Shown here piece after piece: positions 25,876 through 59,264 of a stretch of DNA of 64,000 bases. The position numbers and the translations under genes are program-made. The notes beneath the pieces were generated by a model that saw only the letters and a list, made by a program, of their open reading frames with translations, was not told the DNA's origin and did not search any database. The stretch is taken from positions 594,654 through 658,653 of the forward strand of contig OZ245016.1 in the NCBI GenBank assembly GCA_965223765.1. Reading direction: 5' to 3'. This DNA is from Nitrospirales bacterium (GTDB taxonomy: Bacteria; Nitrospirota; Nitrospiria; Nitrospirales; UBA8639). Each line of letters starts with the position of its first letter. The stretch's first letter is position 1.

Positions 25876-26544
25876 TCACTCAGAAATCTTATAACCGATG
25901 TCACGAACCGTCTGGATCAGTTTTGGCGAAAAACCTTTATCTATCTTGTTCCGTAGATAGCGGATATACACATCGACGACATTGGTGAGTGGATCATGGT
26001 GTTGCCCCCACACCTGTTCAATAATCATGGTTCGGCTTAAGGGGCGGTTAGGACGAGACATGAGGTATTCCAACAACGCAAATTCTTTGGCCGTCAGTGA
26101 GATGGATTGTCGTCCTCTAGTGACCTCGCGGGTTTCTTTGTTTAAACACAGGTCGCCCACTTCGAGGACTGCGGATGTCTCTTGGTAGGTGCCTCGTCGG
26201 ATAAGAGCCTGGATTCGGGCTAGCAATTCTTCGAAGGCAAAAGGCTTCGTTAAATAATCGTCAGCACCAGTTTGAAGACCTTCAATCTTATCTTGAAGCG
26301 CATCTCGCGCCGTGAGCATTAAAATTGGGGTACGGATACCTTCTTGCCTTAGCGTCTGGCAAATTTCCTTTCCTGTAAGATCGGGTAAAAATATATCTAG
26401 AAGAATGACCCCATAATTTCCTCTTCCCGACTCTAACCCTTGCGGTCCAGTATTCGCTGTATCGACTTGAAAGCCTTCGGCCTCTAAGCCCCGTTTGACG
26501 AACTGGGTAATACGTTCATCATCCTCGATGAGGAGTAGTCTCAT
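25876..26544 (-). CDS. OmpR-family response regulator, close paralog of 25003..25680
   Basis: same REC and winged-helix motifs; overlaps the histidine kinase 3' end. Confidence 0.93.
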   Translation of the reverse strand: MRLLLIEDDERITQFVKRGLEAEGFQVDTANTGPQGLESGRGNYGVILLDIFLPDLTGKEICQTLRQEGIRTPILMLTARDALQDKIEGLQTGADDYLTKPFAFEELLARIQALIRRGTYQETSAVLEVGDLCLNKETREVTRGRQSISLTAKEFALLEYLMSRPNRPLSRTMIIEQVWGQHHDPLTNVVDVYIRYLRNKIDKGFSPKLIQTVRDIGYKISE

Positions 26545-34774: not shown

Positions 34775-35719
34775 TTAGAATCGGAATCGGATTCCGCCTG
34801 AGAAACCAAAATCTGCCGCACTTTTCGAGAGTCCGACAAAGCCACCTACATTCATTCCAATCGCGCGAGTTATGCGGTAACGAATATCGCCATAGACATC
34901 TCTTGCGTGAGGAATGCCTTTCACGACAGCTCGATATTCTTCATAAAATACACTCGTGCGTAATTTGTCGGTCAGGTAATATCCCAGACCCACATCGTAA
35001 TTCCATTGGTTTCGAAAATTCCGGCCCTTGGGGTCGCCAAGAATAGTATAGCCTCCATCTAGATACAAAATAAGGTCTCGGGTTAAGGCCTTAGCGGCCT
35101 CGCCACCAAACCCATAGTCAAATTCGCCAGTCCCTAAACCCTTATCTTCGTCGGCCGTCGGGAATTTTACTCGACCGGTGAGGTTCACCGATGGAATCCA
35201 ATCTTGTTCATCGATGAGATAGTAGCGCGTAGCAAGTGTAATATCTCCTAATCCACTCTCTGTTTGCTTGTCTCTTTTTGTGGTTGTGGTGATAGGACCG
35301 GAATCGTCATCATCAACTTCGTCATCATCGGATGGTCCGCTACTGCCGGAGCCACTGTTGCTACTTCCCGGTCCACTGTTATCGCTGCCGGAACCACTGT
35401 TACTCCCCCCGCCGCCACTTCGGTCACCACCAATAAAGGTCACGGAGCCATCACTGGTAATCCGGACATAGGGAACCGTAACCGACAGTTCTCCAAAACT
35501 GAATAAGCGTTTGATAGCGAAAGGGACATAGGTCACCGTAGTCGTCGTGTCGGTTCCATAATCACCTCGGCTATAGGAAGGATTGACTGAGATCTGCCAG
35601 TTTTGTGCACTCTCTTCAGCAAGGAGACGGGGTGGGAACAACAGAATGGGTATCAATAGTAGACAGTACAACCCTCCAGCCCAAGCCAAAAAAGTCCTAT
35701 CAGAACTTCTATAGCGCAT
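34775..35719 (-). CDS. outer-membrane beta-barrel 'transporter'-like protein with a G/S/D-rich insertion
   Basis: AAGGAG RBS; YSRGDYG, SGLGDITL, KFPTADEDKGLGTGEFD, terminal FRF; internal GGGSNSGSGSDNSGPGSSNSG...DDDE. Confidence 0.75.
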   Translation of the reverse strand: MRYRSSDRTFLAWAGGLYCLLLIPILLFPPRLLAEESAQNWQISVNPSYSRGDYGTDTTTTVTYVPFAIKRLFSFGELSVTVPYVRITSDGSVTFIGGDRSGGGGSNSGSGSDNSGPGSSNSGSGSSGPSDDDEVDDDDSGPITTTTKRDKQTESGLGDITLATRYYLIDEQDWIPSVNLTGRVKFPTADEDKGLGTGEFDYGFGGEAAKALTRDLILYLDGGYTILGDPKGRNFRNQWNYDVGLGYYLTDKLRTSVFYEEYRAVVKGIPHARDVYGDIRYRITRAIGMNVGGFVGLSKSAADFGFSGGIRFRF

Positions 35720-35881
35720 AAACACTCGACTCCTTGTGGTGATTGGTATGATAGGTATTATTTGATCAGGCAGCAAGACAAGATCTAGAACTGTTATCGG
35801 TTTGACCATAAAGTCTTCATGGGGGCTTCGAGAAACAAGAAATATCGCTATGGAGTAGATAATTCAATTGGCTGTCTGCAT

Positions 35882-35910: not shown

Positions 35911-36094
35911 ACCATCTAAGTTCTCGGATTCCAGAAGGCGTATCATACCTGGATAGAGAACAGACCACTCGTTGGTCACAACCAGTAGCTCTTGTATACT
36001 GTTTCTGAACCGAGGGTCACACATCGGATGATGATATTGGGATACCGGCGAGTAGACAATAAATATATTATATCAATTCCTGACCCTATACTTA

Positions 36095-47351: not shown

Positions 47352-48583
47352 ACCCGTATGGTCAAAAGACTTATGCAGCTTGGCAGTAATAGTATTTCAA
47401 TAGACCACCCAACCTTTCCCGAGTACCAATCGTTTGACGGCCCCCACATTCTTTGTACACTAGCGGTATCAGCAACTCATTACCTTTGCCCTGGTGATTG
47501 CGTTCTTGATGATAGTGAACCGCATACTCTTTGAGCACCTGCCGAAGAGCACCCTCTCCAAATAAAATGACCTTAGACAAGGCTTCTTCCTTCACTGACC
47601 TCACCCATCGCTCTGCGTAGGCATTCAGATTCGGACTCCGTGGAGGAAGTTTGATCGATGTGACCTGAGCAGCTTTGAGTGTGTTCTGAAAGTTCACCCC
47701 GTACTTGGCATCTCGGTCATGGAGTAACCGTTGACCTGGAGCCAAGAATTCCCCTTCTGCCATGGTGACATTGCGTGCCATCTGAATCATCCATGCCGCA
47801 TTGGGGTTTGGTGTCAGGCCAGCAAGATGGACCTTGCGACTCTCTACCTGGATAAAAAACAAGATGTAATAGGTCACTAACCCACTCCTCGTCCAAACTT
47901 CCGCAGTAAAGAAATCAGTCGCGGCTAAGAGATCCCAGTGAGAACGAATAAACTCGGACCATGTGGTGGTTTTTTTTCGCTCTGCTATGGGAGGAAGGTG
48001 ATGCCGTCTTAAAATATTGCCGACTGTTTGGTCGTTAACACTATATCCAATATTCTTCAATACACCGACAATACGATCATACCCCCATGTGCGATTCTCT
48101 TCCGCCAATTGGACAATCAAGTCCTCAATGGCGGAATCAATCCGTGGCCTTCCTCTTTTGGAATGGTGCCTTGACCCATCGGACTTTTTCGCAATGAGTT
48201 TCCGATGCCAAGCCAGTAAAGTCGCCGGTTTCACCACTGATACGATTTCTGTTAGGGCCTGTTTTCCGAGCCGTTTACCAATTTCGGCCAGAGTGATGCG
48301 TTCCCTATCAGTGAGACGTACTCGGCCCGCTATCTGGTTGCGCAAAATACGGTTTTCTGCAACCAGATATTCATTTCGCGCCAACAGCTCTTGGTCAACA
48401 GTTCCTGTGATATAGGCCAGCAGTGTTTTCCACTCCATAGTTCCTCCGCTTGTTCATGTTCACGTTCTTGTTGATGTGGAGTATCCGGCATCAGGACGGG
48501 ACAGGACAAGCGTAAGGAAAGGGCTAGGGTAGCGAGAGAAATCCTGAGGAAACAACGCGTTCGAGTTTTTTGACCATACGAGT
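47352..48583 (-). mobile_element. IS-like element carrying an rve/integrase-core DDE transposase
   Basis: 16-bp TIRs ACCCGTATGGTCAAAA / TTTTGACCATACGAGT flanking ORF 47371..48438; no obvious TSD. Confidence 0.75.
47371..48438 (-). CDS. integrase-core (DDE) transposase
   Basis: ATDFFT, LLHDRDAKY, PRSPNLNAYAERWVRSVKEE, HYHQERNHQG, LGGLLKYY. Confidence 0.9.
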   Translation of the reverse strand: MEWKTLLAYITGTVDQELLARNEYLVAENRILRNQIAGRVRLTDRERITLAEIGKRLGKQALTEIVSVVKPATLLAWHRKLIAKKSDGSRHHSKRGRPRIDSAIEDLIVQLAEENRTWGYDRIVGVLKNIGYSVNDQTVGNILRRHHLPPIAERKKTTTWSEFIRSHWDLLAATDFFTAEVWTRSGLVTYYILFFIQVESRKVHLAGLTPNPNAAWMIQMARNVTMAEGEFLAPGQRLLHDRDAKYGVNFQNTLKAAQVTSIKLPPRSPNLNAYAERWVRSVKEEALSKVILFGEGALRQVLKEYAVHYHQERNHQGKGNELLIPLVYKECGGRQTIGTRERLGGLLKYYYCQAA

Positions 48584-48675
48584 CTGGCTCCGGCAGTCAC
48601 GCCTTTTAGAAATGCCTCTGCCTGTTTAGTTGCCAAGTGATAGTAGGCAATTGAACACACCCGTGCTATAAATGG

Positions 48676-48966
48676 ATGGAGAGTAACAGGCCATGGCTTT
48701 TGTCAGGAAGGACCACTCCCTGCGTGAGCACGCGTGAACACAATGAGCGGAAATTTCCCAACTGGCAGGAACTCACTGCCGGCAGACGACGGTATTGGCT
48801 AGATGTGCTCGGCCGTCACGGCTGGAAAGCCCGGTACGTGAAAGAGGTTGACGCCACGGAAGTGACAGTGCGATTTTATCAAGAAATCTACAACGAAGAG
48901 GGGGCCCTCGTCGAGGTGCACGAGAAGTATCCCATTGACCACGGCCATCAGAAGGTAAAACCATGA
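48676..48966 (+). CDS. small hypothetical protein (true start possibly GTG near 48725)
   Basis: ATGA overlap with the next gene; YWLDV.GRHGWKARYVKEVD...FYQEIY. Confidence 0.65.
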   Translation: MESNRPWLLSGRTTPCVSTREHNERKFPNWQELTAGRRRYWLDVLGRHGWKARYVKEVDATEVTVRFYQEIYNEEGALVEVHEKYPIDHGHQKVKP

Positions 48967-49229
48967 ACCAGATCATTACTCGGCAAATTGTTGCAGACCA
49001 ACTCGCCGCCTACCTCCAGCATGAGCTGTCGCTCCCTGAACTCGTGACCTGGGCCGAATCAACACTGATGGAGGGGGAGTTTGAGTCGGAACATCTCACG
49101 GCCATTCGCGATGTGGTGGCCCGCCTCGGCGTGGCCGACGTCCGGGCTTTCGGCCTGACCTGGGACGACTGCGAGCAACTCCTGAAGCAGCTCGGGTATG
49201 CAGCGCATGTCCACATCGAAGTTGCGTAA
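48963..49229 (+). CDS. small acidic helical hypothetical protein
   Basis: 88 aa, translationally coupled to the upstream ORF. Confidence 0.7.
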   Translation: MNQIITRQIVADQLAAYLQHELSLPELVTWAESTLMEGEFESEHLTAIRDVVARLGVADVRAFGLTWDDCEQLLKQLGYAAHVHIEVA

Positions 49230-49367
49230 TCCTCATTGAGGACACGCCCGGCTCTCCGCTTCGAACCACCGCGCTTGCCGGTTTTCGCCAGTATCTCCCA
49301 ACACAATACATGCTTCCCTTTTTAGTTGCGTGGTTTCATTCAATCTATGTGCGTGTCGTTTCTTTCA

Positions 49368-49470
49368 GGGCGGCGGCCGAGGGCGGAGCGGAGGCCCGCA
49401 TCGGGCCGCAGCCGTCCGCAGGCCGACAGGGGGCGGGCGACTGAGTCGCCTCGAGGCTGAGCCAACAAGG
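49368..49470. repeat. GC-rich repeat R, copy 1
   Basis: 65-nt core 49406..49470 matches 51376..51440 with 1 mismatch; contains GGCGACT-G-AGTCGCC palindrome. Confidence 0.85.
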
Positions 49471-50619
49471 TGTCCCTTCTATTTATCCATCCATCGTCCT
49501 CAAATAGCCCTCTAGTCCTCACGCCGCGCGGCGAGTATACCTGTGGTGCAAGCCTCCGACCATCGGAATGGCGTTGATCTTCCCCATTTCGAGTGTCTCG
49601 TTCTCTCGTTCTTCTGGGGCATCTTTATTGAGAGAAAGATGAGTCCGACTCCCGTGGTAATACGCCAAATAACTTCGTAAGATCCGATGAAGGTGCGATG
49701 TGTTCAAGATGATCAGATGGTCGAGACACTCTCGGCGCACTGAGCCAATGAGTCGCTCGACATACGGATTCTGCCACGGGGATCGTGGAGCGGTGCACAC
49801 TTGCTCAATACCCATTCCATCAACCCTGCGCCGAAATGCACTCCCGTAGATGCTATCCCGATCCCGCAAGACATACGTTGGAGCCGTGTCATAGGGAAAG
49901 GCCTCAACAATCTGTTGGGCCGTCCATTCAGCCGTGGGATGTTCAGTAATGGCGAAATGCAGTACTGACCGCCGCTCATGGGACACCACCAGAAAAACAT
50001 AAAGCACACGAAACGTCGCCGTGGGAACAGTCAAAAAATCCATGGAGACCAGGTCAGGCGCATGATTCTTCAGAAAAGTCTTCCATGATTGAGAGGGAGG
50101 CTTCCGAGGCCGAATCATGTATTTGGAGACGGTGGCTTGTGAGAGATGAATGTCGAGCTTCAGTAGCTCCCCGTGAATCCGCGGGGCTCCCCACAACGGA
50201 TTGGCCTGACTCATATTTCGGATAAGTTCCTTGACCTTTGGATCAATAAAGGGCCGTCCGAGCTTTTCGCCTCGACTTTTCCAGATCCAGAAGAGTCGGA
50301 ACCCCTGCCGGGGCCACCGGAGGACTGTCTGAGGTTGCACAATGATGAGGGCCTTAGACCAGTGACTCCAAAATTGTGAGGCCATGACCCAGAACAGTCG
50401 ATCAGCGCAAGTCAGTTGTGGGCGTTTAGCTGACCTCTTTAGCACCACCAACTGTTGCCGAAGCACAAGATTCTCGAAGAGCAGCTGCTGTCGAGTCTTA
50501 AAGACGGAGAGAAGCATGTTTCCAGCCCATTTCAGTATTGTCATCATGGCTGGAAATGGTGCCTGCGTAGACAAAAAATATTCAAGTATTTCAACATGGA
50601 TGAATTAATAGAAGGGACA
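49471..50619 (-). mobile_element. IS-like element (TG...CA), copy 1
   Basis: TIRs TGTCCCTTCTATTTATCCATC / GATGAATTAATAGAAGGGACA. Confidence 0.85.
49519..50574 (-). CDS. integrase-core (DDE) transposase
   Basis: NPLWGAPRIHGELLKL, SMDFLTV, LRDRDSIYG, SPWQNPYVERLIGSVRRECLDH. Confidence 0.9.
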   Translation of the reverse strand: MSTQAPFPAMMTILKWAGNMLLSVFKTRQQLLFENLVLRQQLVVLKRSAKRPQLTCADRLFWVMASQFWSHWSKALIIVQPQTVLRWPRQGFRLFWIWKSRGEKLGRPFIDPKVKELIRNMSQANPLWGAPRIHGELLKLDIHLSQATVSKYMIRPRKPPSQSWKTFLKNHAPDLVSMDFLTVPTATFRVLYVFLVVSHERRSVLHFAITEHPTAEWTAQQIVEAFPYDTAPTYVLRDRDSIYGSAFRRRVDGMGIEQVCTAPRSPWQNPYVERLIGSVRRECLDHLIILNTSHLHRILRSYLAYYHGSRTHLSLNKDAPEERENETLEMGKINAIPMVGGLHHRYTRRAA

Positions 50620-50710
50620 CTCTTCGTGCCCTCGAAGCAGGACTTGCATTTGTCCTAATTTTCTTGTAGTTCTGTACCAACAGGCCCCAACACTTTCAGG
50701 AGGATACCCT

Positions 50711-50932
50711 ATGACCCGTCTTGAACAACTGGTGAAAGAACTCCCTCCCAATCTGCAACGTGAGGTCGAAGACTTCGCGCAGTTTTTAGTGGACAAGCGC
50801 CACGCTCCTCCCCCACGCCGGTTTCTGCAGCAAGACTGGGCGGGAGGCTTGCGGGAGTTTCGTGAGCAATATTCCGCCTTGGACCTCCAACGGCAAGGCC
50901 TGGCGTGGCGTGGCAATGCCTCATGTACTTGA
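50711..50932 (+). CDS. DUF2281-like antitoxin
   Basis: LPPNLQREVEDFAQFL...QDWAGGLREFREQYSALDLQ; AGGAGG RBS; overlaps the PIN gene. Confidence 0.75.
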   Translation: MTRLEQLVKELPPNLQREVEDFAQFLVDKRHAPPPRRFLQQDWAGGLREFREQYSALDLQRQGLAWRGNASCT

Positions 50933-51318
50933 TTGATACCAACATCTGGCTGGAACGCCTCCTGGACCAAGCCCAAGCGCCTGCCGTCGGGCAATTCCTC
51001 GCTCAAACGCCCACCGATACGTTGTTTCTCACCGACTTTGCCTTACATTCCCTGGCCGTCATTCTCTTGCGTCTGAAGCAACCTGAGGTCTGGCGCATGT
51101 TCTTACAGGACACCATGATTCAGGGTCGGGTCGGCGTGCTCTCCCTGACATCGGATGAGTTAGTGCCCCTTCATGCCGTCATGACGCAACACGGGTTAGA
51201 CTTTGACGATGCCTACCAATATGCCGTCGCCGAACGCGACGCGCTCACCCTCGTGAGTTTCGATACCGACTTTGATCGAACCCCGCGGGGCCGCAAGATA
51301 CCCGCCGATCTTCTCTAA
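50923..51318 (+). CDS. vapC: PIN-domain VapC-like toxin
   Basis: MYLIDTNIWLE, LDFDDAYQY, LVSFDTDFD. Confidence 0.85.
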   Translation: MYLIDTNIWLERLLDQAQAPAVGQFLAQTPTDTLFLTDFALHSLAVILLRLKQPEVWRMFLQDTMIQGRVGVLSLTSDELVPLHAVMTQHGLDFDDAYQYAVAERDALTLVSFDTDFDRTPRGRKIPADLL

Positions 51319-51355
51319 CCTTCTTATCCATTTATTCTTTCTTTAGTGGCTCTTG

Positions 51356-51440
51356 GGGCGGCGGCCAGCCGCTGACCGCAGCCGTCCGTAGGCCGACAGG
51401 GGGCGGGCGACTGAGTCGCCTCGAGGCTGAGCCAACAAGG
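51356..51440. repeat. GC-rich repeat R, copy 2
   Basis: near-identical to the core of copy 1; again directly abuts the IS end. Confidence 0.85.
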
Positions 51441-51686
51441 TGTCCCTTCTATTTATTATCCATCCATCGTCCTCAAATAGCCCTCTAGTCCTCACGCCGC
51501 GCGGCGAGTATACCTGTGGTGCAAGCCTCCGACCATCGGAATGGCGTTGATCTTCCCCATTTCGAGTGTCTCGTTCTCTCGTTCTTCTGGGGCATCTTTA
51601 TTGAGAGAAAGATGAGTCCGACTCCCATGGTAATACGCCAAATAACTTCGTAAGATCCGATGAAGGTGTGAGGTTGCCCCTCTTTA

Positions 51687-52043
51687 GTGGACCCCAGGAA
51701 GTATGGTAGGAAGGGTTCACTAAAACAGGAGGGAGACAAGATGCAGACCATTCCGCATCGACAGTACACGAAGGAATTCCAGGACGCGGCGGTGAATCAA
51801 GTTCTGGAAGGGGGCCGCTCGCTTGCCGAGGTGGCCCGCCGTTTGGAGATGTCCGACAAAACCTTGGGGAATTGGGTTCGACGTGTGCGGCGTGGGCAAC
51901 CGCTCGCCCACGGAGGACGGCCACCTGAAGTGACGGACGTGCAGGCGGAGCTGTCCCGCCTGCGCACCGAAAACGCGCAGTTGAAGCTCGACCGGGAAAT
52001 CTTAAAAAAGGCGGCGGCGTACTTCGTGAGAGAGTCGCGGTGA
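51687..52043 (+). CDS. IS3 transposase OrfA (HTH); likely start 51741
   Basis: RQYTKEFQDAAV, SLAEVARRLEMSDKTLGNWV, EILKKAAAYF. Confidence 0.88.
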   Translation: MDPRKYGRKGSLKQEGDKMQTIPHRQYTKEFQDAAVNQVLEGGRSLAEVARRLEMSDKTLGNWVRRVRRGQPLAHGGRPPEVTDVQAELSRLRTENAQLKLDREILKKAAAYFVRESR

Positions 52044-52888
52044 GGTACGCCTGGATTCAGCACGATCGCGACGTGTATCCGGTCGATCGGAGCTGTTTCT
52101 TATTTGGAGTGGCGCGCAGTGGGTATTATGCCTGGCAGGAGCGGCATCGTCGGCATCGGCAGTGTTACGGGAGTCCCCGCATGACAGCTGATCTGCGGGC
52201 CGCAGGGTGGCGAGTGAATCGGAAACGGATTGCTCGAGTAATGCGGCAGGCGGGCATCCGGGCTCGCGGACGCTGTCGGCGGCGGTATACCACCCAATCC
52301 CAGCATCCGTATCCGATCGCGCCCAATCGGTTAGCCCAACAATTTACCGTGGTCGCGCCCAATCGGGTCTGGGTGACTGACATCACCTATGTGGCGACGA
52401 AGGAAGGATGGGTGTATGTGGCACTCGTGCTGGACCTGTTTTCTCGGAAATTGGTGGGCTGGGCGCTGGAAGCTTTTGTCGATACGCGGTTAACGCTGGC
52501 CGCGTTGCGCATGGCCCTTGGCTGGCGACAGCCGGATACGACGCTCATGCATCACTCTGATCGAGGTGTGCAATATGCCGCGGCAGCCTATCGTACGGTG
52601 CTAGAAGGACACGGCATCACGCGCTCGATGAGCCGGAGAGGTAATTGTTATGATAATGCTCCGATGGAATCGGCCAATGGGACGTTGAAAACCGAACGGG
52701 TCTACCAGCAGCAGTACCAGACGCGAGCAGAAGCCAAAGCAGATCTCATCGAGTATATCGGGTATTACAACACAGAACGTCGCCATTCGGCATTAGGGTA
52801 TCTGAGTCCAGCAGAGTTTGAACGGCAGTGGCAGAGCCTCCAACAGCCAGCAGCGGCGCCGTCGACCGCCGAACAGGGGGATGCCTAG
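52040..52888 (+). CDS. IS3 transposase OrfB (DDE), apparently shortened near the N-terminus
   Basis: YGSPR, WVTDITY, HHSDRGVQY, GNCYDNAPMES, YNTERRHSALGYLSP. Confidence 0.88.
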   Translation: MRYAWIQHDRDVYPVDRSCFLFGVARSGYYAWQERHRRHRQCYGSPRMTADLRAAGWRVNRKRIARVMRQAGIRARGRCRRRYTTQSQHPYPIAPNRLAQQFTVVAPNRVWVTDITYVATKEGWVYVALVLDLFSRKLVGWALEAFVDTRLTLAALRMALGWRQPDTTLMHHSDRGVQYAAAAYRTVLEGHGITRSMSRRGNCYDNAPMESANGTLKTERVYQQQYQTRAEAKADLIEYIGYYNTERRHSALGYLSPAEFERQWQSLQQPAAAPSTAEQGDA

Positions 52889-53908
52889 GTATGGACCGAA
52901 GGGCGATCGCCCGTTATCGGGCAAATATGAAGGCCAAATTTTTCATGGAAACCTGGTGTCCACTTTTTGGGGGAAAGATCAGTGCGATGTGTTCAAGATG
53001 ATCAGATGGTCGAGACACTCTCGGCGCACTGAGCCAATGAGTCGCTCGACATACGGATTCTGCCACGGGGATCGTGGAGCGGTGCACACTTGCTCAATAC
53101 CCATTCCATCAACCCTGCGCCGAAATGCACTCCCGTAGATGCTATCCCGATCCCGCAAGACATACGTTGGAGCCGTGTCATAGGGAAAGGCCTCAACAAT
53201 CTGTTGGGCCGTCCATTCAGCCGTGGGATGTTCAGTAATGGCGAAATGCAGTACTGACCGCCGCTCATGGGACACCACCAGAAAAACATAAAGCACACGA
53301 AACGTCGCCGTGGGAACAGTCAAAAAATCCATGGAGACCAGGTCAGGCGCATGATTCTTCAGAAAAGTCTTCCATGATTGAGAGGGAGGCTTCCGAGGCC
53401 GAATCATGTATTTGGAGACGGTGGCTTGTGAGAGATGAATGTCGAGCTTCAGTAGCTCCCCGTGAATCCGCGGGGCTCCCCACAACGGATTGGCCTGACT
53501 CATATTTCGGATAAGTTCCTTGACCTTTGGATCAATAAAGGGCCGTCCGAGCTTTTCGCCTCGACTTTTCCAGATCCAGAAGAGTCGGAACCCCTGCCGG
53601 GGCCACCGGAGGACTGTCTGAGGTTGCACAATGATGAGGGCCTTAGACCAGTGACTCCAAAATTGTGAGGCCATGACCCAGAACAGTCGATCAGCACAAG
53701 TCAGTTGTGGTCGTTTAGCTGACCTCTTTAGCACCACCAACTGTTGCCGAAGCACAAAATTCTCGAAGAGCAGCTGACGTTGAGTCTTAAAGACAGAGAG
53801 AAGCATGTTTCCAGCCCATTTCAGTATTGTCATCATGGCTGGAAATGGTGCCTGCGTAGACAAAAACATTCAAGTATTTCAACGCAGATGAGTTAATAGA
53901 AGGGATAA

Positions 53909-54029
53909 GTCGACTACCTCAATAACCGTCCCAGGAAAACACGAGGGTATCGAACCCCCAACCAATTATTTCACAAGCACTTCGTCCCGCTGGTGGAGCA
54001 GGACATTGCACTTACTCCTTGAATTCAAG
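53909..54029 (+). pseudogene. 3' stub of an IS30-family transposase with right end
   Basis: translates VDYLNNRPRKTRGYRTPNQLF...IALTP*, followed by TGAATTCAAG. Confidence 0.7.
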
Positions 54030-54049
54030 TATGACCCCTTTTCCAAAAT

Positions 54050-54721
54050 CTAAAATCGAGAATCACACCAGTGCGATTGGGAGGTGTATTCTTGTGCACG
54101 GGCTCGAACCCCCCTCACGTAGGATTTTTGGTCTTGATCTGAAATTAATAATTCCAGTTCATCGAGTGCGTTTTTCGCCGCTTGATTGCACATATATGAA
54201 AGGCCGAAAACGGCAACTCTGAAGATCCCCCCTCTCCGGTCTTTAGCAATTTTCAACAGTACGGGCACGTCCTGGGGATCGTCAAACCGTGAAAGGGCAT
54301 CGACGGCATCCATGGCAAGGTCATTCTCCCGCGCTTCAATCAACGAACGTACATATTGATGCGCCTTTTCGAGATTCATGTCAATTCTTTCATTCATCTG
54401 TGCTTGAACCAAAATATCCACCATACTCACGCGGATGATCGGTTGGTGTATCACCTCCCACGGAAGACCGGGGTATTTATCTTTACGGGCCTCCCAAAGG
54501 TCTTGAATGAAGGGCAAGATTTCACCCTGGTCGTACGTGGCCTTTATCTCGTTCAGGGCCTGAAGAATTTGATACTGATTTTTCGTCTGTAATTCTTCAG
54601 TCAACGTGGGAACATCCCACGACCGTTCGCTTCGCTCTGGGGCAGCGATAGTCGTGTTGCTCACCAAATACGAAACAAGGAGGAGAGACAGACGCACTCC
54701 TAGTAGACTCTTGACGTTCAC
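54050..54721 (-). CDS. exported HEAT-repeat-like protein, candidate immunity protein
   Basis: signal peptide; AVDALSRFDDPQDVPVLLKIA...AVFGL. Confidence 0.6.
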   Translation of the reverse strand: MNVKSLLGVRLSLLLVSYLVSNTTIAAPERSERSWDVPTLTEELQTKNQYQILQALNEIKATYDQGEILPFIQDLWEARKDKYPGLPWEVIHQPIIRVSMVDILVQAQMNERIDMNLEKAHQYVRSLIEARENDLAMDAVDALSRFDDPQDVPVLLKIAKDRRGGIFRVAVFGLSYMCNQAAKNALDELELLISDQDQKSYVRGVRARAQEYTSQSHWCDSRF

Positions 54722-54818
54722 GAGAGCTCCTATCTGTTCCGAGAACCAAATCGACCGCTACCGGTATTAGGCTATGGGCCATGAGGGCTTGCCACTAAGC
54801 CATCCCGTTAGGGATTGT

Positions 54819-55100
54819 TCAGAAAGTCCCCCCGCCGCCAGTCTCCCTTACCTCATGTCGTTCAAAAGGCGTTGTCCGTATTAATCTTTCATGTCGGCCA
54901 AGAAACTGGTTAATTGTAATTGGAAATGTAAAAACTTCTTTCTCCCCACAGGGCCCCTCCTTTTCTTCTTTACATTCAAAAAATACATCCTGAAACTCCT
55001 TAATCACCTCGAACACGTTTTCCACTCCGATTGTCACTTCTATCGTAACACCTGTCAAGACTGCGGCTAAAGGGGAGGAAGACGTAAACAGAACAGGCAC
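54819..55100 (-). pseudogene. possible orphan toxin C-terminal remnant
   Basis: open frame without a good RBS, directly after a boundary motif and just before the candidate immunity gene. Confidence 0.35.
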
Positions 55101-55116
55101 GGAGCGAGGGGAGGAA

Positions 55117-55145
55117 CTATCTCATAAAACAAGTGACTTGACCCC
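55117..55145 (-). repeat. cassette-boundary motif copy
   Basis: plus strand CTATCTCATAAAACAAGTGACTTGACCCC. Confidence 0.55.
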
Positions 55146-55227
55146 CTATTCCACGCCTGCTAGCTACATAAACAAATCGACCTTCCGCAATATGAGGCGC
55201 AGTTAAAGAGGGCCAGAGATGTGGTGT

Positions 55228-55243
55228 TGCAAGACCTGACCCC
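55228..55243 (-). repeat. cassette-boundary motif copy
   Basis: plus strand TGCAAGACCTGACCCC. Confidence 0.55.
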
Positions 55244-55426
55244 AAGCGTTGTACTTTGCCTTTCTCGCCTCACCTTTTTCATGTTTTGGCAAATTTGCTG
55301 GATTTTTGTTTTTTGTGTGTTCAGAAGATTCAAACGTGGAAGGCACCTCGGCCCCACTCTCTGAGATAGAAGGGACAGGCAGCTTGAGGAGGCGAGCGGC
55401 TAAAGGCGAGAAAGTAGAGAGAATAT

Positions 55427-55448
55427 CATGAAGCAAGCAACCTGCCGC
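55427..55448 (-). repeat. cassette-boundary motif copy (degenerate)
   Basis: plus strand CATGAAGCAAGCAACCTGCCGC abutting the stop of 55449..55769. Confidence 0.5.
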
Positions 55449-55769
55449 TTATCCTTCTTTTGTTGGATAAAACGAGACAAATATCTCCTCATTTTTTTCC
55501 TCCCAATATGTTTGCATATTTTTATCCTTAGCATAGGTATAAATGCTCCAGAAGACAGACAGCCGTAGACATTTCCAAAAAAGGAAAAACTTTTTTATTT
55601 TAGATGGAGGACCTTCCGCAAGCTCACGAAAATCTTTTCCCCAAATCTTAGTTTTTTTTAACTTATTAACGATTGGCCCTTTTACTTGAACGACGAAAGG
55701 CTGTCCATTCTGAATAGCTTCATAGGCATGATCAAAAAAATTTTCCCCTGGATAAAAAATCGTTTCCAT
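55449..55769 (-). CDS. candidate immunity protein
   Basis: AT-rich 106-aa ORF starting 8 nt after the orphan Rhs C-terminal stop. Confidence 0.6.
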   Translation of the reverse strand: METIFYPGENFFDHAYEAIQNGQPFVVQVKGPIVNKLKKTKIWGKDFRELAEGPPSKIKKFFLFWKCLRLSVFWSIYTYAKDKNMQTYWEEKNEEIFVSFYPTKEG

Positions 55770-55777
55770 AATGACAT

Positions 55778-56251
55778 TTAACCTCCATCGCCATCCTCCC
55801 CACCACCTGAGGCAGCTGCTTCACACGCTACTTTTACAAGAAAGCAGGCCCCAACACACACTTTCTGAAATTTCTTTGGGCAAGCATTCTTGCAGCCTGC
55901 AAGACATTTTTCAAAAATACTTTGGCAGAAACCTCGTGAGCTTTTTGGTGGTTTCTTAACAGGAGGTTTGCTCCCCTTTGGTTCTTGAAGAGTACCACTT
56001 TTACTTTTGGATTGATCAGGATTTTTGGGATCAAACGTTTTTCCAGTCGTAGGATCATAGACCTTAACATCAGAAGACTTCCCTGAATTGCCCCCTTTTG
56101 AACTAGACGCCTGCCTACCGGTGGCATCAATGAGATTGACAGGATTGTTGCGCACATACCGGTAAAGATTCTTATCTGCTGAACTGAATTCGATGGGGTC
56201 TTCCCCAAGAAATCTTCCAGCATTCTGATCGAAGTACCGAGCTCTGTAGAA
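55778..56251 (-). pseudogene. orphan Rhs core end plus C-terminal toxin domain (Cys-rich tip)
   Basis: FYRARYFDQNAGRFLGEDPI...NLYRYVRNNPVNLIDATG, then a K/P/S-rich linker and CQSIFEKCLAGCKNAC...CVGAC. Confidence 0.8.
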
Positions 56252-56584
56252 AACAGCTCGGCCCGACGATCCCCGTCGTACCCACAGTCGATTTCCTCAA
56301 TGCGATTCCCCACTTAGCCGCCGTTTTTTCTCGTGGCACCTCCCACTTTAAAAATTTTCGCCCAGACGCGATTTTTAGCTTAGCAACAACAGCGAATTAT
56401 GGCGAGGAAAGGATGAAGCGTGCACCACGAAATCAGCTGCAGAAGATTTTGGATGGGGTCGATACGCTGGCTTCGCAGACGAGGCAACGCTCCGCGTTGC
56501 GAGGATAAGTGGCTAAAGGGCATGGGATAGCAAGTCAGCAATGACCCCACATGTGAATCCGCGGAGGAATGGAGAGAAGCAAAT

Positions 56585-56612
56585 CTATCTCATGAAGCAA
56601 ACAACCTGACCC
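56585..56612 (-). repeat. cassette-boundary motif copy
   Basis: plus strand CTATCTCATGAAGCAAACAACCTGACCC, 6 nt from the stop of 56619..56846. Confidence 0.55.
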
Positions 56613-56618
56613 TTTAAC

Positions 56619-56846
56619 TTAGAGTTTTTCAGATTCCTGACGTTTTTTAATTTTATGGATAATCCAGAGACCAAGTAGAGCTGCAGAAAAACTGCATAAA
56701 GTGCCAAACCAAAAAGAATAATTTAATTTCCCATCATTGAATTGGATAATGATGGCTACGACTAGTGGAGCAATTACAAAAGATGCGATTATCTGATACA
56801 TCTTTCGAAACGCCGTTTTTTGTTCTTTTGTTCCTTGGTCGGCCAT
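56619..56846 (-). CDS. small two-TM protein, candidate immunity protein
   Basis: 75 aa, two hydrophobic helices, downstream of the Rhs gene. Confidence 0.55.
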   Translation of the reverse strand: MADQGTKEQKTAFRKMYQIIASFVIAPLVVAIIIQFNDGKLNYSFWFGTLCSFSAALLGLWIIHKIKKRQESEKL

Positions 56847-57045
56847 AAAAATTCACATGTTACCTTAAGCAGCCTCTGAGAAGGTCAGTTGCAAAATCGA
56901 GTGTTCTTTCAATCCACTCCATTATGCATAACTTTGGGGGAGTTACCGTTTAACCTTATTTTTTGTGAGTCATATAATAAGCTATCTGCCCGTCAGGTTT
57001 AATCAAACAACTCGAGACGAAAAATTATCGTGCAATCAGACTCAT

Positions 57046-58395
57046 TTAAAAACCTGAAGTTTGTCCAACGGCGTTCCCAAATAAACCAAAACCTGTAGTA
57101 CCTATACCTTGCAATCCCGCGGTAAAATTAGAGAGAGCAGAATTCCCACCTGCTAATTTAGTAAGTTGCCCAAATCTAAATGAAGTACTGGCGCCTAGAC
57201 CAGCTCCAATGGCGGAACTAAAATTGAGACAGTCAAATGCTCCTTCCCCCTGGGCTAGATTCGTCGAAATCTGGGCAGCTAGGTCGACTGCTCCGGCAAA
57301 TACCCCTGCCGCCGCAGAGGTAGAAATTCTTGCGGACGTTAACGCCCCAGTGGCCCCGCCAGCCGCAATATTAGCTACAGTTTGCCCTAGTGAGGCCCCT
57401 TGTGCCAGCGAACCCACGAAAGCACTCGTACCACCAAATATTGCTCCAGCAATTGCGAGAGGATTTTCTCCTCTTGGATCATTCAGATTAACCGGATTAT
57501 TCAACACATAGCGATAGAGGTTCTGGTCCCCACCTCTGAAGCGGATGGGATCTTCACTCAGGAATCTGCCGAGCTGTGCGTCGTAGTATCTTGCTCTGTA
57601 GAAGTATAACCCCGATTCACCATCATATTCTCGGCCGGTATAGCTAAAGGGTTGACTCACCGCCTCAGCAACAGACAGTCTTCTCCCATAACTATCATAC
57701 ACATACGAGTTGGCAATGGTCCCAGAACTATCCGTTAAGTGTGTAACTGAGCCCTGGTGGTTGCTGTGGTAGTAGAAAAAGCCTTGCCCGGCTTTCTGTA
57801 AGACCAACGGTTGATCCACTTGATCGCCGTGAGAATACCGCGCGGTGAACGTATTGCTGCCGTCGTATTCTAAGAGAATATCCTCGCCATCGTAGACATA
57901 CCGAGTGATGGTACCTGCGACATTCTTCTCAATGCGCCGCCCCAGTCCATCATACTTGTACGTCACAGTGGTACTATCGGGCCGATCAATCTGAATGAGT
58001 TGATCTTGCGCATCCCAAGTGTACGTGGTCACGTCCGTGGGAATGGCTTTATTGGTCTTGGTCTGCAGATTCCCATTGTTGTCGTAGGTGTACGTGAATT
58101 GGTCATCTTCCAAGAGCCGATTCAGGTCATCATGATTGTGGCTGGATGAAAGGAACGAGGTGGTCCGGTTGCCGACCAAATCGTAATCATAGCTTTCCGC
58201 ATTCGCGACAGAGCCGCCTGATGTCAACCGTTGCAACGCATCATAGGCATGGGACCGATTCTCACTGGGCGTCACCTGATCCAAAATGTCCAGAATGTTG
58301 CCCACCGGAAACCACATCGCCAGCAGCATCAGCCCCTCAAAGATCTGCCGGACATGCTTGGCGAGCCAATGATCTTGTTTGCCTGTCGTGCGCAT
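57046..58395 (-). CDS. 5'-truncated Rhs/YD-repeat protein with a Gly/Ala-rich C-terminal toxin domain
   Basis: YD repeats, YTGREYDGESGLYFYRARYYDAQLGRFLSEDP...NNPVNLNDPRG; ATG 58395 has an AAGGAG RBS, but the first 29 aa are not Rhs-like. Confidence 0.85.
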   Translation of the reverse strand: MRTTGKQDHWLAKHVRQIFEGLMLLAMWFPVGNILDILDQVTPSENRSHAYDALQRLTSGGSVANAESYDYDLVGNRTTSFLSSSHNHDDLNRLLEDDQFTYTYDNNGNLQTKTNKAIPTDVTTYTWDAQDQLIQIDRPDSTTVTYKYDGLGRRIEKNVAGTITRYVYDGEDILLEYDGSNTFTARYSHGDQVDQPLVLQKAGQGFFYYHSNHQGSVTHLTDSSGTIANSYVYDSYGRRLSVAEAVSQPFSYTGREYDGESGLYFYRARYYDAQLGRFLSEDPIRFRGGDQNLYRYVLNNPVNLNDPRGENPLAIAGAIFGGTSAFVGSLAQGASLGQTVANIAAGGATGALTSARISTSAAAGVFAGAVDLAAQISTNLAQGEGAFDCLNFSSAIGAGLGASTSFRFGQLTKLAGGNSALSNFTAGLQGIGTTGFGLFGNAVGQTSGF

Positions 58396-58535
58396 TATCC
58401 ACTCCTTTGCATCAGAGCCTTCAGAACTTCCCCTCTCGTTCGCCCCTCTCACGCGGCGTGTGCGGGGAGGGCGAGGGAACACCGTAGCGTTGGAGTGATA
58501 CCAGTTTTGTGAAAAAAGCAAAATCCGGCCTTTTC

Positions 58536-58555
58536 CTCAACGAGATCTCGTTGAG
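58536..58555. repeat. perfect 20-bp palindrome
   Basis: CTCAACGAGATCTCGTTGAG. Confidence 0.8.
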
Positions 58556-58793
58556 AAGAACTACGTATCATCGCCGATACATGATTGTCTACGTTGGGAG
58601 CGTCATGATCGAACGATAGCCTGAGTTTCGATCTGGAGTGCGAGGTCCCGGCTCGGTATCACCTGCTGGAAAATGCTCACAGATTCAATGAGTTTGGTTC
58701 CTCAATTCCTCCTCGCGCGCTCCCGATCCAGGTTAAGCATCATTCTTGCCTCAGTCCTCACCCTAGACTCAGACACACAACCCCGGAGGCCAC

Positions 58794-59264
58794 ATGTCCG
58801 ACCAATCGACAACACGCTCGCCATCTGTGGTGGTGACGCCCCAAGAACATCGCGTGTTGGTCTTGCTCAAGGACGGCTGGACGATCGCGCAATTGGCGGC
58901 GGCCTTGGCGCTGCAGCCCGCGACGGTGGAGTCGTATCTCCGCAGCCTCTACCGGAAAACGGGGTTGTCGAGACGGGAAGCACTCCTCTGGTGGTGGGAG
59001 TCAGTCGCACGGGACGACCCGACTGGACCAATGAGAACGCCGAGGAACCTTCGCTTCATCACGCGATCTAGACCCAGCCCATGCGAGCCATGTGGTGAAG
59101 ATCACAAGGCCCAGCAACCGACTGCAGAATTGAGAAGCAACAAGACGAGAATGGGCGATGCCAAAAACGCAGACAGCACAAGAAACGGCAACGCTCACGT
59201 AACGGCATCAACCGGAAAGCCCAGGAACCTCATTCGTCAGAGTTCAGGTTCGCGAATTTCGTAA
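58794..59264 (+). CDS. LuxR/GerE-type HTH protein; C-terminal half may be read-through
   Basis: GGAGG RBS; TPQEHRVLVLLKDGWTIAQLAAALALQPATVESYLRSLYRKTG. Confidence 0.65.
   Translation: MSDQSTTRSPSVVVTPQEHRVLVLLKDGWTIAQLAAALALQPATVESYLRSLYRKTGLSRREALLWWWESVARDDPTGPMRTPRNLRFITRSRPSPCEPCGEDHKAQQPTAELRSNKTRMGDAKNADSTRNGNAHVTASTGKPRNLIRQSSGSRIS

Follow-up and report, generated by a model that had tools for sequence, protein, structure and literature searches.

Repeat motifs at the cassette junctions of an Rhs array in a Nitrospirales bacterium as probable solo ends of TIRYT transposase elements

Short GGGTCA-type motifs at the cassette junctions of an Rhs array, located in the 64-kb stretch of Nitrospirales DNA analysed here (the window; genome G000, contig label C1), are probably (about 70%) solo or truncated terminal inverted repeats (TIRs) of TIRYT/TIRtron elements, sited 3′ of Rhs toxin/immunity pairs and marking the edges of cassettes. 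L numbers denote loci and other G numbers denote relatives in the phylum; the minus strand carries the Rhs-array genes and also the motif in the form given here. TIRtrons carry genes resembling those of the REP-associated tyrosine transposases (RAYTs; REP, repetitive extragenic palindrome), have terminal inverted repeats that share GGGGWSAS, and give rise to modest repeat families that are single, dimeric or grouped (Di Nocera, De Gregorio and Rocco 2013, PMC3733652). Their proteins equal subclass 2.1.2 of TnpA-Y1, characterized by a Bac_DnaA_C tail (Quentin et al. 2018, PMC6006769), and the C-terminal helix-turn-helix (HTH) domains on record are of the Bac_DnaA_C, HTH_23 or HTH_28 type (PMC3733652, PMC6006769). 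The TIRYT class itself is already known, and what is new here is the setting of its ends at Rhs cassette junctions: neither PMC3733652 nor PMC6006769 mentions Rhs or toxin cassettes, and literature searches gave no link between TIRYT and Rhs.

The four copies reported in a first-pass annotation of the window are all present on one strand and belong to two TIR subtypes. Type 1 comprises copy A at 56612-56585 (GGGTCAGGTTGTTTGCTTCATGAGATAG; with its leader 56556..56618, AAAGGGTCAGGTTGTTTGCTTCATGAGATAGATTTGCTTCTCTCCATTCC), copy B at 55450-55423 (AAGCGGCAGGTTGCTTGCTTCATGATAT; with its leader 55395..55455), and copy D at 55145-55117 (GGGGGTCAAGTCACTTGTTTTATGAGATAG; with its leader 55087..55149); type 2 is represented by copy C at 55243-55228 (GGGGTCAGGTCTTGCA), which consists of the 17-nt tip only (55228..55244, GGGGTCAGGTCTTGCAA). 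A fifth copy on the minus strand, A′, was overlooked in that annotation; it lies at ~56510..56551 (TGGGGTCATTGC-TGACTTGCTATCCCATGCCC) and was designated type 3. The array junctions hold three type-1 copies, one type-2 tip and one type-3 copy, each standing at the edge between one cassette and the next sequence. As the annotation had described, two of these copies are within 6 nt of an immunity-like stop and one precedes a remnant tip: copy A starts 6 nt beyond the stop of a 75-aa immunity-like open reading frame (ORF) and is ~200 nt ahead of an orphan Rhs fragment, the homology of which starts near 56406, and copy B adjoins the stop of a 106-aa ORF, with the 5′ flank of the repeat providing that TAA. 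Elsewhere in the window, a solo TIR at 36060..36089 (minus strand; nhmmer match; ATAGGGTCAGGAATTGATATAATATATTT) is of type 0, the subtype of the genome's own TIRtron, and is 27/29 identical to the 5′ TIR of that element; it lies ~250 nt upstream of a 344-aa gene (34775-35809), with no Rhs gene nearby.

The words previously noted as common to pairs of copies, TCATGAAGCAA in A and B and CTATCTCAT in A and D, were recovered, and the pairwise identities are 24/28 for A/B and 22/28 for A/D; by sequence comparison, these long matches are beyond chance. The 9-mer GGGTCARGT on its own is poor evidence, with four occurrences in the window against 0.84 expected and four reached in 2/100 shuffles, and GGGTCAGGT occurs 23 times genome-wide, about as composition predicts. 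Relatives of the window copies were identified in other genomes of the phylum. Copy D with its leader is identical to G013 copy 2966 at 60/63 positions (95%), though the adjoining Rhs cores are just 79% identical; the core of copy A matches G013 copies at 33/37 and 31/37 positions; and the nearest relative of copy B, G013_10803 (45/63), is likewise placed after the immunity gene of an orphan. Copy C is the sole exact GGGGTCAGGTCTTG in this genome, and its tip recurs unchanged as a TIR tip next to TIRYT genes in G148 (L050) and G006 (L019) and resembles the junction repeats of G004; in G148, G006 and G004, the 17-mer forms the 5′ TIR of such genes. Copy A′ can be aligned to the 5′ TIR of the TIRtrons in G006 and G019 and to junction copies of G010 and G013, the columns GGGGTCATTG..TGACTT being invariant. 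The fit to GGGGWSAS varies among the window copies: C (GGGGTCAG) and A′ (GGGGTCAT, final position off) fit or nearly fit, D is off at the final position (GGGGTCAA), A has lost the first G (aGGGTCAG), and the tip of B is degenerate, with GCGGCA where GGGTCA is expected (GCGGCAGG). Intact relatives of every window subtype match GGGGWSAS.

A whole-genome scan yielded a family of ~22 sites with the consensus ATTnGGGGTCA[AG]GTnnTGATtTnCTATnTTT, and the total number of TIR sites in this genome is ~26, occurring singly or in direct tandem. Full sites are often preceded by one or two additional mini-tips, each composed of GGGGTCA and 4-6 A/T-rich bases, just upstream of the repeat (for example, L025 12276-12295, L028 2954-2971, and G000:C1:3024215-3024245), as if the tip had been repeatedly cut and rejoined. 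The only TIRtron clearly present in this genome is of type 0 and contains the TIRYT gene P0001 (321 aa; 3311690-3312655), the product of which matches Y1_Tnp (E=1.1e-12) and Bac_DnaA_C (E=2.4e-9) and has an intact HYH motif; one type-0 TIR is 23 nt upstream of the start codon, and two inverted copies overlap the stop codon on the 3′ side. Homologues of P0001 in relatives (31-50% identity) are bracketed by inverted GGGGTCA repeats, and TIRYT homologues number more than 7000 at E ≤ 1e-20. In G015, a gene with Y1_Tnp and Bac_DnaA_C domains is flanked by type-1 inverted repeats (28 nt, 89% complementary) that closely match A, B and D and read GGGGTCAGGTTGC(G/T)TG(T/C)TTTATRACATA, nearly the sequence of A and B. 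The subtypes found to bracket TIRYT genes are type 1 in G015, type 3 in G006 and G019, and type 0 in this genome, and type-2 TIRs are beside TIRYT genes in G148, G004, and G006. Because window-type repeats flank TIRYT genes, the connection to HUH/Y1 transposases that the annotation had made is, on these alignments, real; the accompanying REP identity did not hold. Folding of eight copies as DNA gave z from -1.15 to +1.40, none beyond shuffles and none forming a hairpin, and the copies are therefore not REPs.

Five further Rhs core ends were located by tblastn in this genome, and at three of these loci, the immunity genes are followed immediately by repeats in rhs orientation. Placement was assessed for 26 TIR sites (13 clusters) by simulation, with sites placed either uniformly or in non-ORF DNA only. 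Fourteen of the 26 sites (4 of the 13 clusters) lie downstream of an Rhs core end at a distance of at most 4 kb, and all 14 are co-oriented with rhs; no simulation with uniform placement reached this concentration, and P = 5e-6 was obtained with placement in non-ORF DNA only. The motif scan and enrichment test that had been suggested in the annotation thus gave a co-oriented excess behind Rhs core ends (P ≤ 5e-6). Replichore bias was rejected as a source of the shared orientation: GC skew places the origin at about 0.75 Mb and the terminus at about 2.65 Mb, and TIR orientation follows the rhs strand, not the replichore. In the array at 1.56 Mb (L001, G000:C1:1563900-1566320), the repeats behind a 2423-aa Rhs gene and its immunity gene part three items: a hicAB-like pair encoded on the opposite strand, a fragment of Rhs core of 35 codons, and a vapBC pair. 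The core fragment breaks off at ~1565470, precisely at the start of a repeat.

Homologous arrays were compared in the sister species G004, G006, G010, G013, and G015, the Rhs core ends of which share 72-89% protein identity with that of the truncated Rhs gene in the window. A TIR is present at nearly every junction of these arrays, with at least four TIR subtypes in the same kind of position, and an intact TIRtron is found inside the array in both G015 and G006. In alignments of the junctions, homology begins ~5 nt before GGGGTCA, and the sequences upstream are unrelated immunity-gene ends; the GGGG tip, as aligned, marks the start of the conserved junction sequence.

At the level of the phylum, 151 genomes were searched with TIGR03696 (the Rhs core end) and with the TIRYT protein. 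Of the 150 TIRYT-like genes listed, 20, from 16 genomes, are 0.2-2.2 kb from a TIGR03696 core end on the same contig, compared with an estimated chance expectation of fewer than one. All 20 are on the rhs strand, and 16 are downstream of the core end. Six of these loci were inspected, and in each the TIRYT gene is directly behind the Rhs tip; a GGGGWSAS tip adjoins the gene in four, and at L051 and L052 the strict pattern found none in that position. An immunity-like ORF between the Rhs tip and the TIRYT gene is not evident at every one of the six. Adjacency of TIRtrons to Rhs tips is widespread within the phylum and oriented, and the link between repeats and cassette ends that had been proposed from the window copies extends to four Rhs loci of this genome, five sister species, and the phylum. 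In Nitrococcus mobilis (L048), a TIRYT gene with 50% identity has PIN (vapC-type) pairs on both sides and a RES-domain gene near, a context that points to a broader association between TIRtrons and small toxin modules.

Several observations weigh against this identification or narrow its reach. The junction repeats of the sister species are non-independent because the arrays share ancestry, the fifth Rhs locus of this genome has no repeats, and three isolated Rhs fragments lack a TIR at the 5′ edge. About half of the TIR sites in this genome have no relation to Rhs, and several are beside vapBC, hicAB, AbiE-like or insertion sequence (IS) genes; because many sites adjoin toxin-antitoxin or IS genes, a general preference for flexible regions contributes to the pattern. 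More distant Rhs loci of the genus contain 7 co-oriented and 6 opposite GGGGTCA in 83 kb, and TIRYT homologues sampled from three other lineages have no Rhs neighbour. A general link to all Rhs families was also considered and rejected, as fifteen further loci showed no excess except for one G013 locus. A gene with type-1 TIRs was seen in G015 only, and within this genome the window copies are the sole matches to the type-1 and type-2 patterns; a search that was not exhaustive and included no genome scan for type 3 brought up no TIRYT gene with type-2 or type-3 repeats in this genome. No clear matching repeats accompany the two remaining Y1 genes here, at 780089 and 1688632. Because the analysis of this genome yielded no TIRYT gene with the TIR subtypes of the array, the window copies are most likely relics, that is, inert footprints, and no cognate gene was found here for the action in trans envisaged in the annotation. 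Finally, PMC3733652 and PMC6006769 record no TIRYT biochemistry, and the nick site and the binding of the repeat are putative.

The arrangement of TIRs suggests a route by which they could come to mark cassette edges. In this phylum, TIRtron units are placed immediately 3′ of Rhs toxin/immunity pairs and share the strand of the rhs gene; the enzyme would bind the repeat through its HTH and nick at the tip, and new units would land at or beside existing tips, which would produce tandem mini-tips and nests of repeats. During replacement of an Rhs tip, the homology arms could be the Rhs core on the left and the TIR module on the right, in which case every displaced cassette would end in a co-oriented TIR. 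Nicking, landing at tips, and the role of the TIR as right arm are all steps that we infer.

A more active role is possible, if doubtful, in which TIRYT cuts one strand at two co-oriented tips, frees the module between them as a single-stranded DNA circle, and reinserts it, resembling an integron in function with HUH chemistry instead. Such a system would handle Rhs toxin/immunity modules, and probably small toxin-antitoxin modules too, and would build or reshuffle orphan arrays; we regard its existence as no better than tentative. It would account for the single co-oriented TIR at each junction (14/14 in this genome), the start of homology exactly at the tip, the tandem mini-tips, the occurrence of a 160-nt TIR-led unit in two contexts, and the hicAB and vapBC modules between TIRs in the Rhs2 array, and it is in keeping with at least four TIR subtypes in equivalent positions, with the 95% identity of copy D and its leader between species that have 79% identical Rhs cores, and with the phylum-wide adjacency to Rhs. 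Against it, no toxin/immunity cassette turned up in more than one context, no TIRYT gene of the window's subtypes was found in this genome, and Rhs and contact-dependent inhibition (CDI) orphan arrays elsewhere form without transposase end-repeats. Alignment among the arrays of the six species is limited to the Rhs cores, a single fragment of orphan core, and a single inserted element, which leaves no cassette traceable in two contexts. Acquisition or shuffling of cassettes in trans, as proposed in the annotation, is accordingly unproven, with distant Rhs loci mostly devoid of the repeats.

It is unlikely that the repeats are pure bystanders, which would pile up with TIRtrons behind Rhs genes as DNA that is dispensable and often exchanged, hitch-hiking with no role in rearrangement. 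The many sites in other flexible spots beside IS and toxin-antitoxin genes, the Nitrococcus homologue between vapBC pairs, and the IS copies right beside the window's array are all what such accumulation would leave; however, enrichment holds for non-ORF DNA only (P = 5e-6), orientation agrees with the rhs strand in 14/14 sites and 20/20 genes, and neither the constant distance of one cassette from the core end nor breaks exactly at the tip would be expected of random accumulation. A regulatory reason for keeping the repeat, whether as promoter, terminator or mRNA-end element and whether for the immunity gene before it or the orphan cassette after it, is quite improbable. Type-0 copies do resemble TTGGGG-N17-TATATT with a TG extension, the 5′ TIR is 23 nt before the TIRYT start codon, and the G004 repeat is ~50 nt upstream of each orphan start, but a promoter/terminator scan did not flag the window copies, these form no hairpin, the exact type-0 pattern was present in just 1 of the 30 relatives searched, and once there, and many copies have no downstream ORF. 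An Rfam-type search of window positions 54000-59000 gave no RNA family match, and at eleven other TIR loci it gave one insignificant match (mir-26, 24.7 bits against a gathering score of 57). The identification as solo TIRYT ends at cassette edges remains the preferred reading.

Among known systems, the elements resemble TIRtrons in having a RAYT-like Y1 HUH gene that ends in a Bac_DnaA_C HTH tail, inverted repeats with GGGGWSAS tips, a 3′ repeat that overlaps the gene end, no hairpin, and a modest family of single, tandem or grouped solo copies; they differ in that solo ends of several subtypes gather here at Rhs cassette junctions, co-oriented with rhs. REPs are imperfect palindromes of 20-40 nt with a GT[AG]G foot, present in hundreds of copies that are mostly inverted doublets. 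REPtrons (RAYT/TnpA-REP of E. coli and Pseudomonas) likewise have a usually single-copy Y1 HUH gene between inverted short repeats, and their repeat is also dispersed in intergenic regions, often right after stop codons; the elements described here, unlike REPtrons, have no hairpin or GTAG foot, tens rather than hundreds of copies, no REPIN doublets, and an extra HTH. REP/REPIN palindromes were rejected on the lack of a stable stem and of GTAG at the window tips, and the REP/REPIN-RAYT class on the P0001 score of 51.2 bits with the RAYT profile NF047646 (cut-off 80) and on ~26 sites without inverted doublets.

Members of IS200/IS605 have asymmetric subterminal hairpins, no TIRs, and a TnpA of ~130-150 aa; this family was rejected on the presence of TIRs, the 321-aa protein, and a score of 20.8 bits with the IS200 profile NF033573 (cut-off 55). 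HUH chemistry is common to IS200/IS605, IS91/ISCR and the present elements, and the one-ended capture of neighbouring genes by ISCR is formally analogous to a single TIR leading a cassette, whereas the enzymes of IS91/ISCR are Y2 and Rep-like. In integrons, attC is a folded bottom-strand site recombined by the IntI integrase. Integron cassettes (attC × attI) are similarly co-oriented, promoter-less modules with one short repeat each and toxin-antitoxin pairs among their cargo; here, in contrast, the enzyme would be an HUH nuclease instead of a tyrosine recombinase, and cassette mobility is putative. Integron attC sites were rejected on the lack of a folded site, no genome search for IntI having been made. 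In orphan Rhs/CDI arrays generally, displaced C-terminal tips with a piece of core and immunity genes likewise trail a main or truncated rhs gene, but here a transposase end-repeat is at the right edge of every variable module. To our knowledge, the usual homologous-recombination model of orphan Rhs/CDI arrays includes no conserved right-hand landmark.

Two long-open questions are the role of the widespread RAYT-like TIRYT genes and what sets the right edge of spare Rhs/CDI cassettes. One candidate answer may serve both, with the TIRYT end-repeat as a conserved landmark at the right edge of the cassette and the TIRYT gene sitting one cassette-length behind Rhs core ends across the phylum; the repeats may help explain how spare Rhs toxin cassettes are assembled. 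If a cassette system of this kind is true, a widespread and unstudied HUH family gains a function, and even without involvement of the enzyme, the repeats are a practical marker of cassette boundaries in these genomes.

The array in the window begins with a 5′-truncated Rhs gene fragment, a 491-aa ORF at 57046..58521 (minus strand; Pfam RHS_repeat, E=1.7e-9, and translation), in which the block of Rhs-core homology spans 57476-58309 by blastn, and the translated C-terminal tip beyond the core end is Gly/Ala-rich. Directly after this tip is the 75-aa hydrophobic ORF that precedes copy A (56619..56846, minus strand; ORF list and translation), a presumed immunity gene by position alone, with no significant family match. 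An orphan Rhs tip at 55778..56406 (minus strand; three-frame translation) consists of a core fragment and a Cys-rich C-terminal domain. The fragment, which reads ...AVFYRARYFDQNAGRFLGEDPIEF...NPVNLIDATG and is frameshifted at its 5′ end, is 65% identical to the main core by tblastn, and homology of the orphan tip to the G013 and G006 orphans begins at 56406 by blastn. The 106-aa ORF that follows (55449..55769, minus strand; ORF list and translation) is the presumed immunity gene of the orphan tip; it has no family match, and an exact-protein look-up gave no record elsewhere. It is followed by ~350 nt without a clear gene and then, after copy D, by a 93-aa ORF of no assigned function at 54819..55100 (minus strand; ORF list and translation), which contains a promoter-like TTGACA-17-GACAAT at 55058-55030 and may be no gene at all. 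Just outside the Rhs array (window 47371-53869) are three IS transposase genes of the rve type, including a near-identical pair.

In G013 (L028 3797-8531) and G006 (L029 2033-6818), a block of ~5 kb with genes of ~1040-1050 aa and ~346 aa, plus a third gene, is located between the repeat nest and the orphan Rhs tip; the window does not have this block and retains, near 56414-56510, just 32 codons of an adjacent gene on the opposite strand. The 160-nt element mentioned above occurs at G000:C1:27753-27910 (L004) and 1565452-1565290 (L001) with 84% identity, starts exactly at a TIR tip, has an inverted degenerate tip ~65 nt inside, and could be a miniature TIR-led unit. Also in L004, just upstream of ffh, a frameshifted IS30-type transposase gene (G000:C1:26521-27780) lies between co-oriented TIR-like copies at 26521 and 27668/27753.

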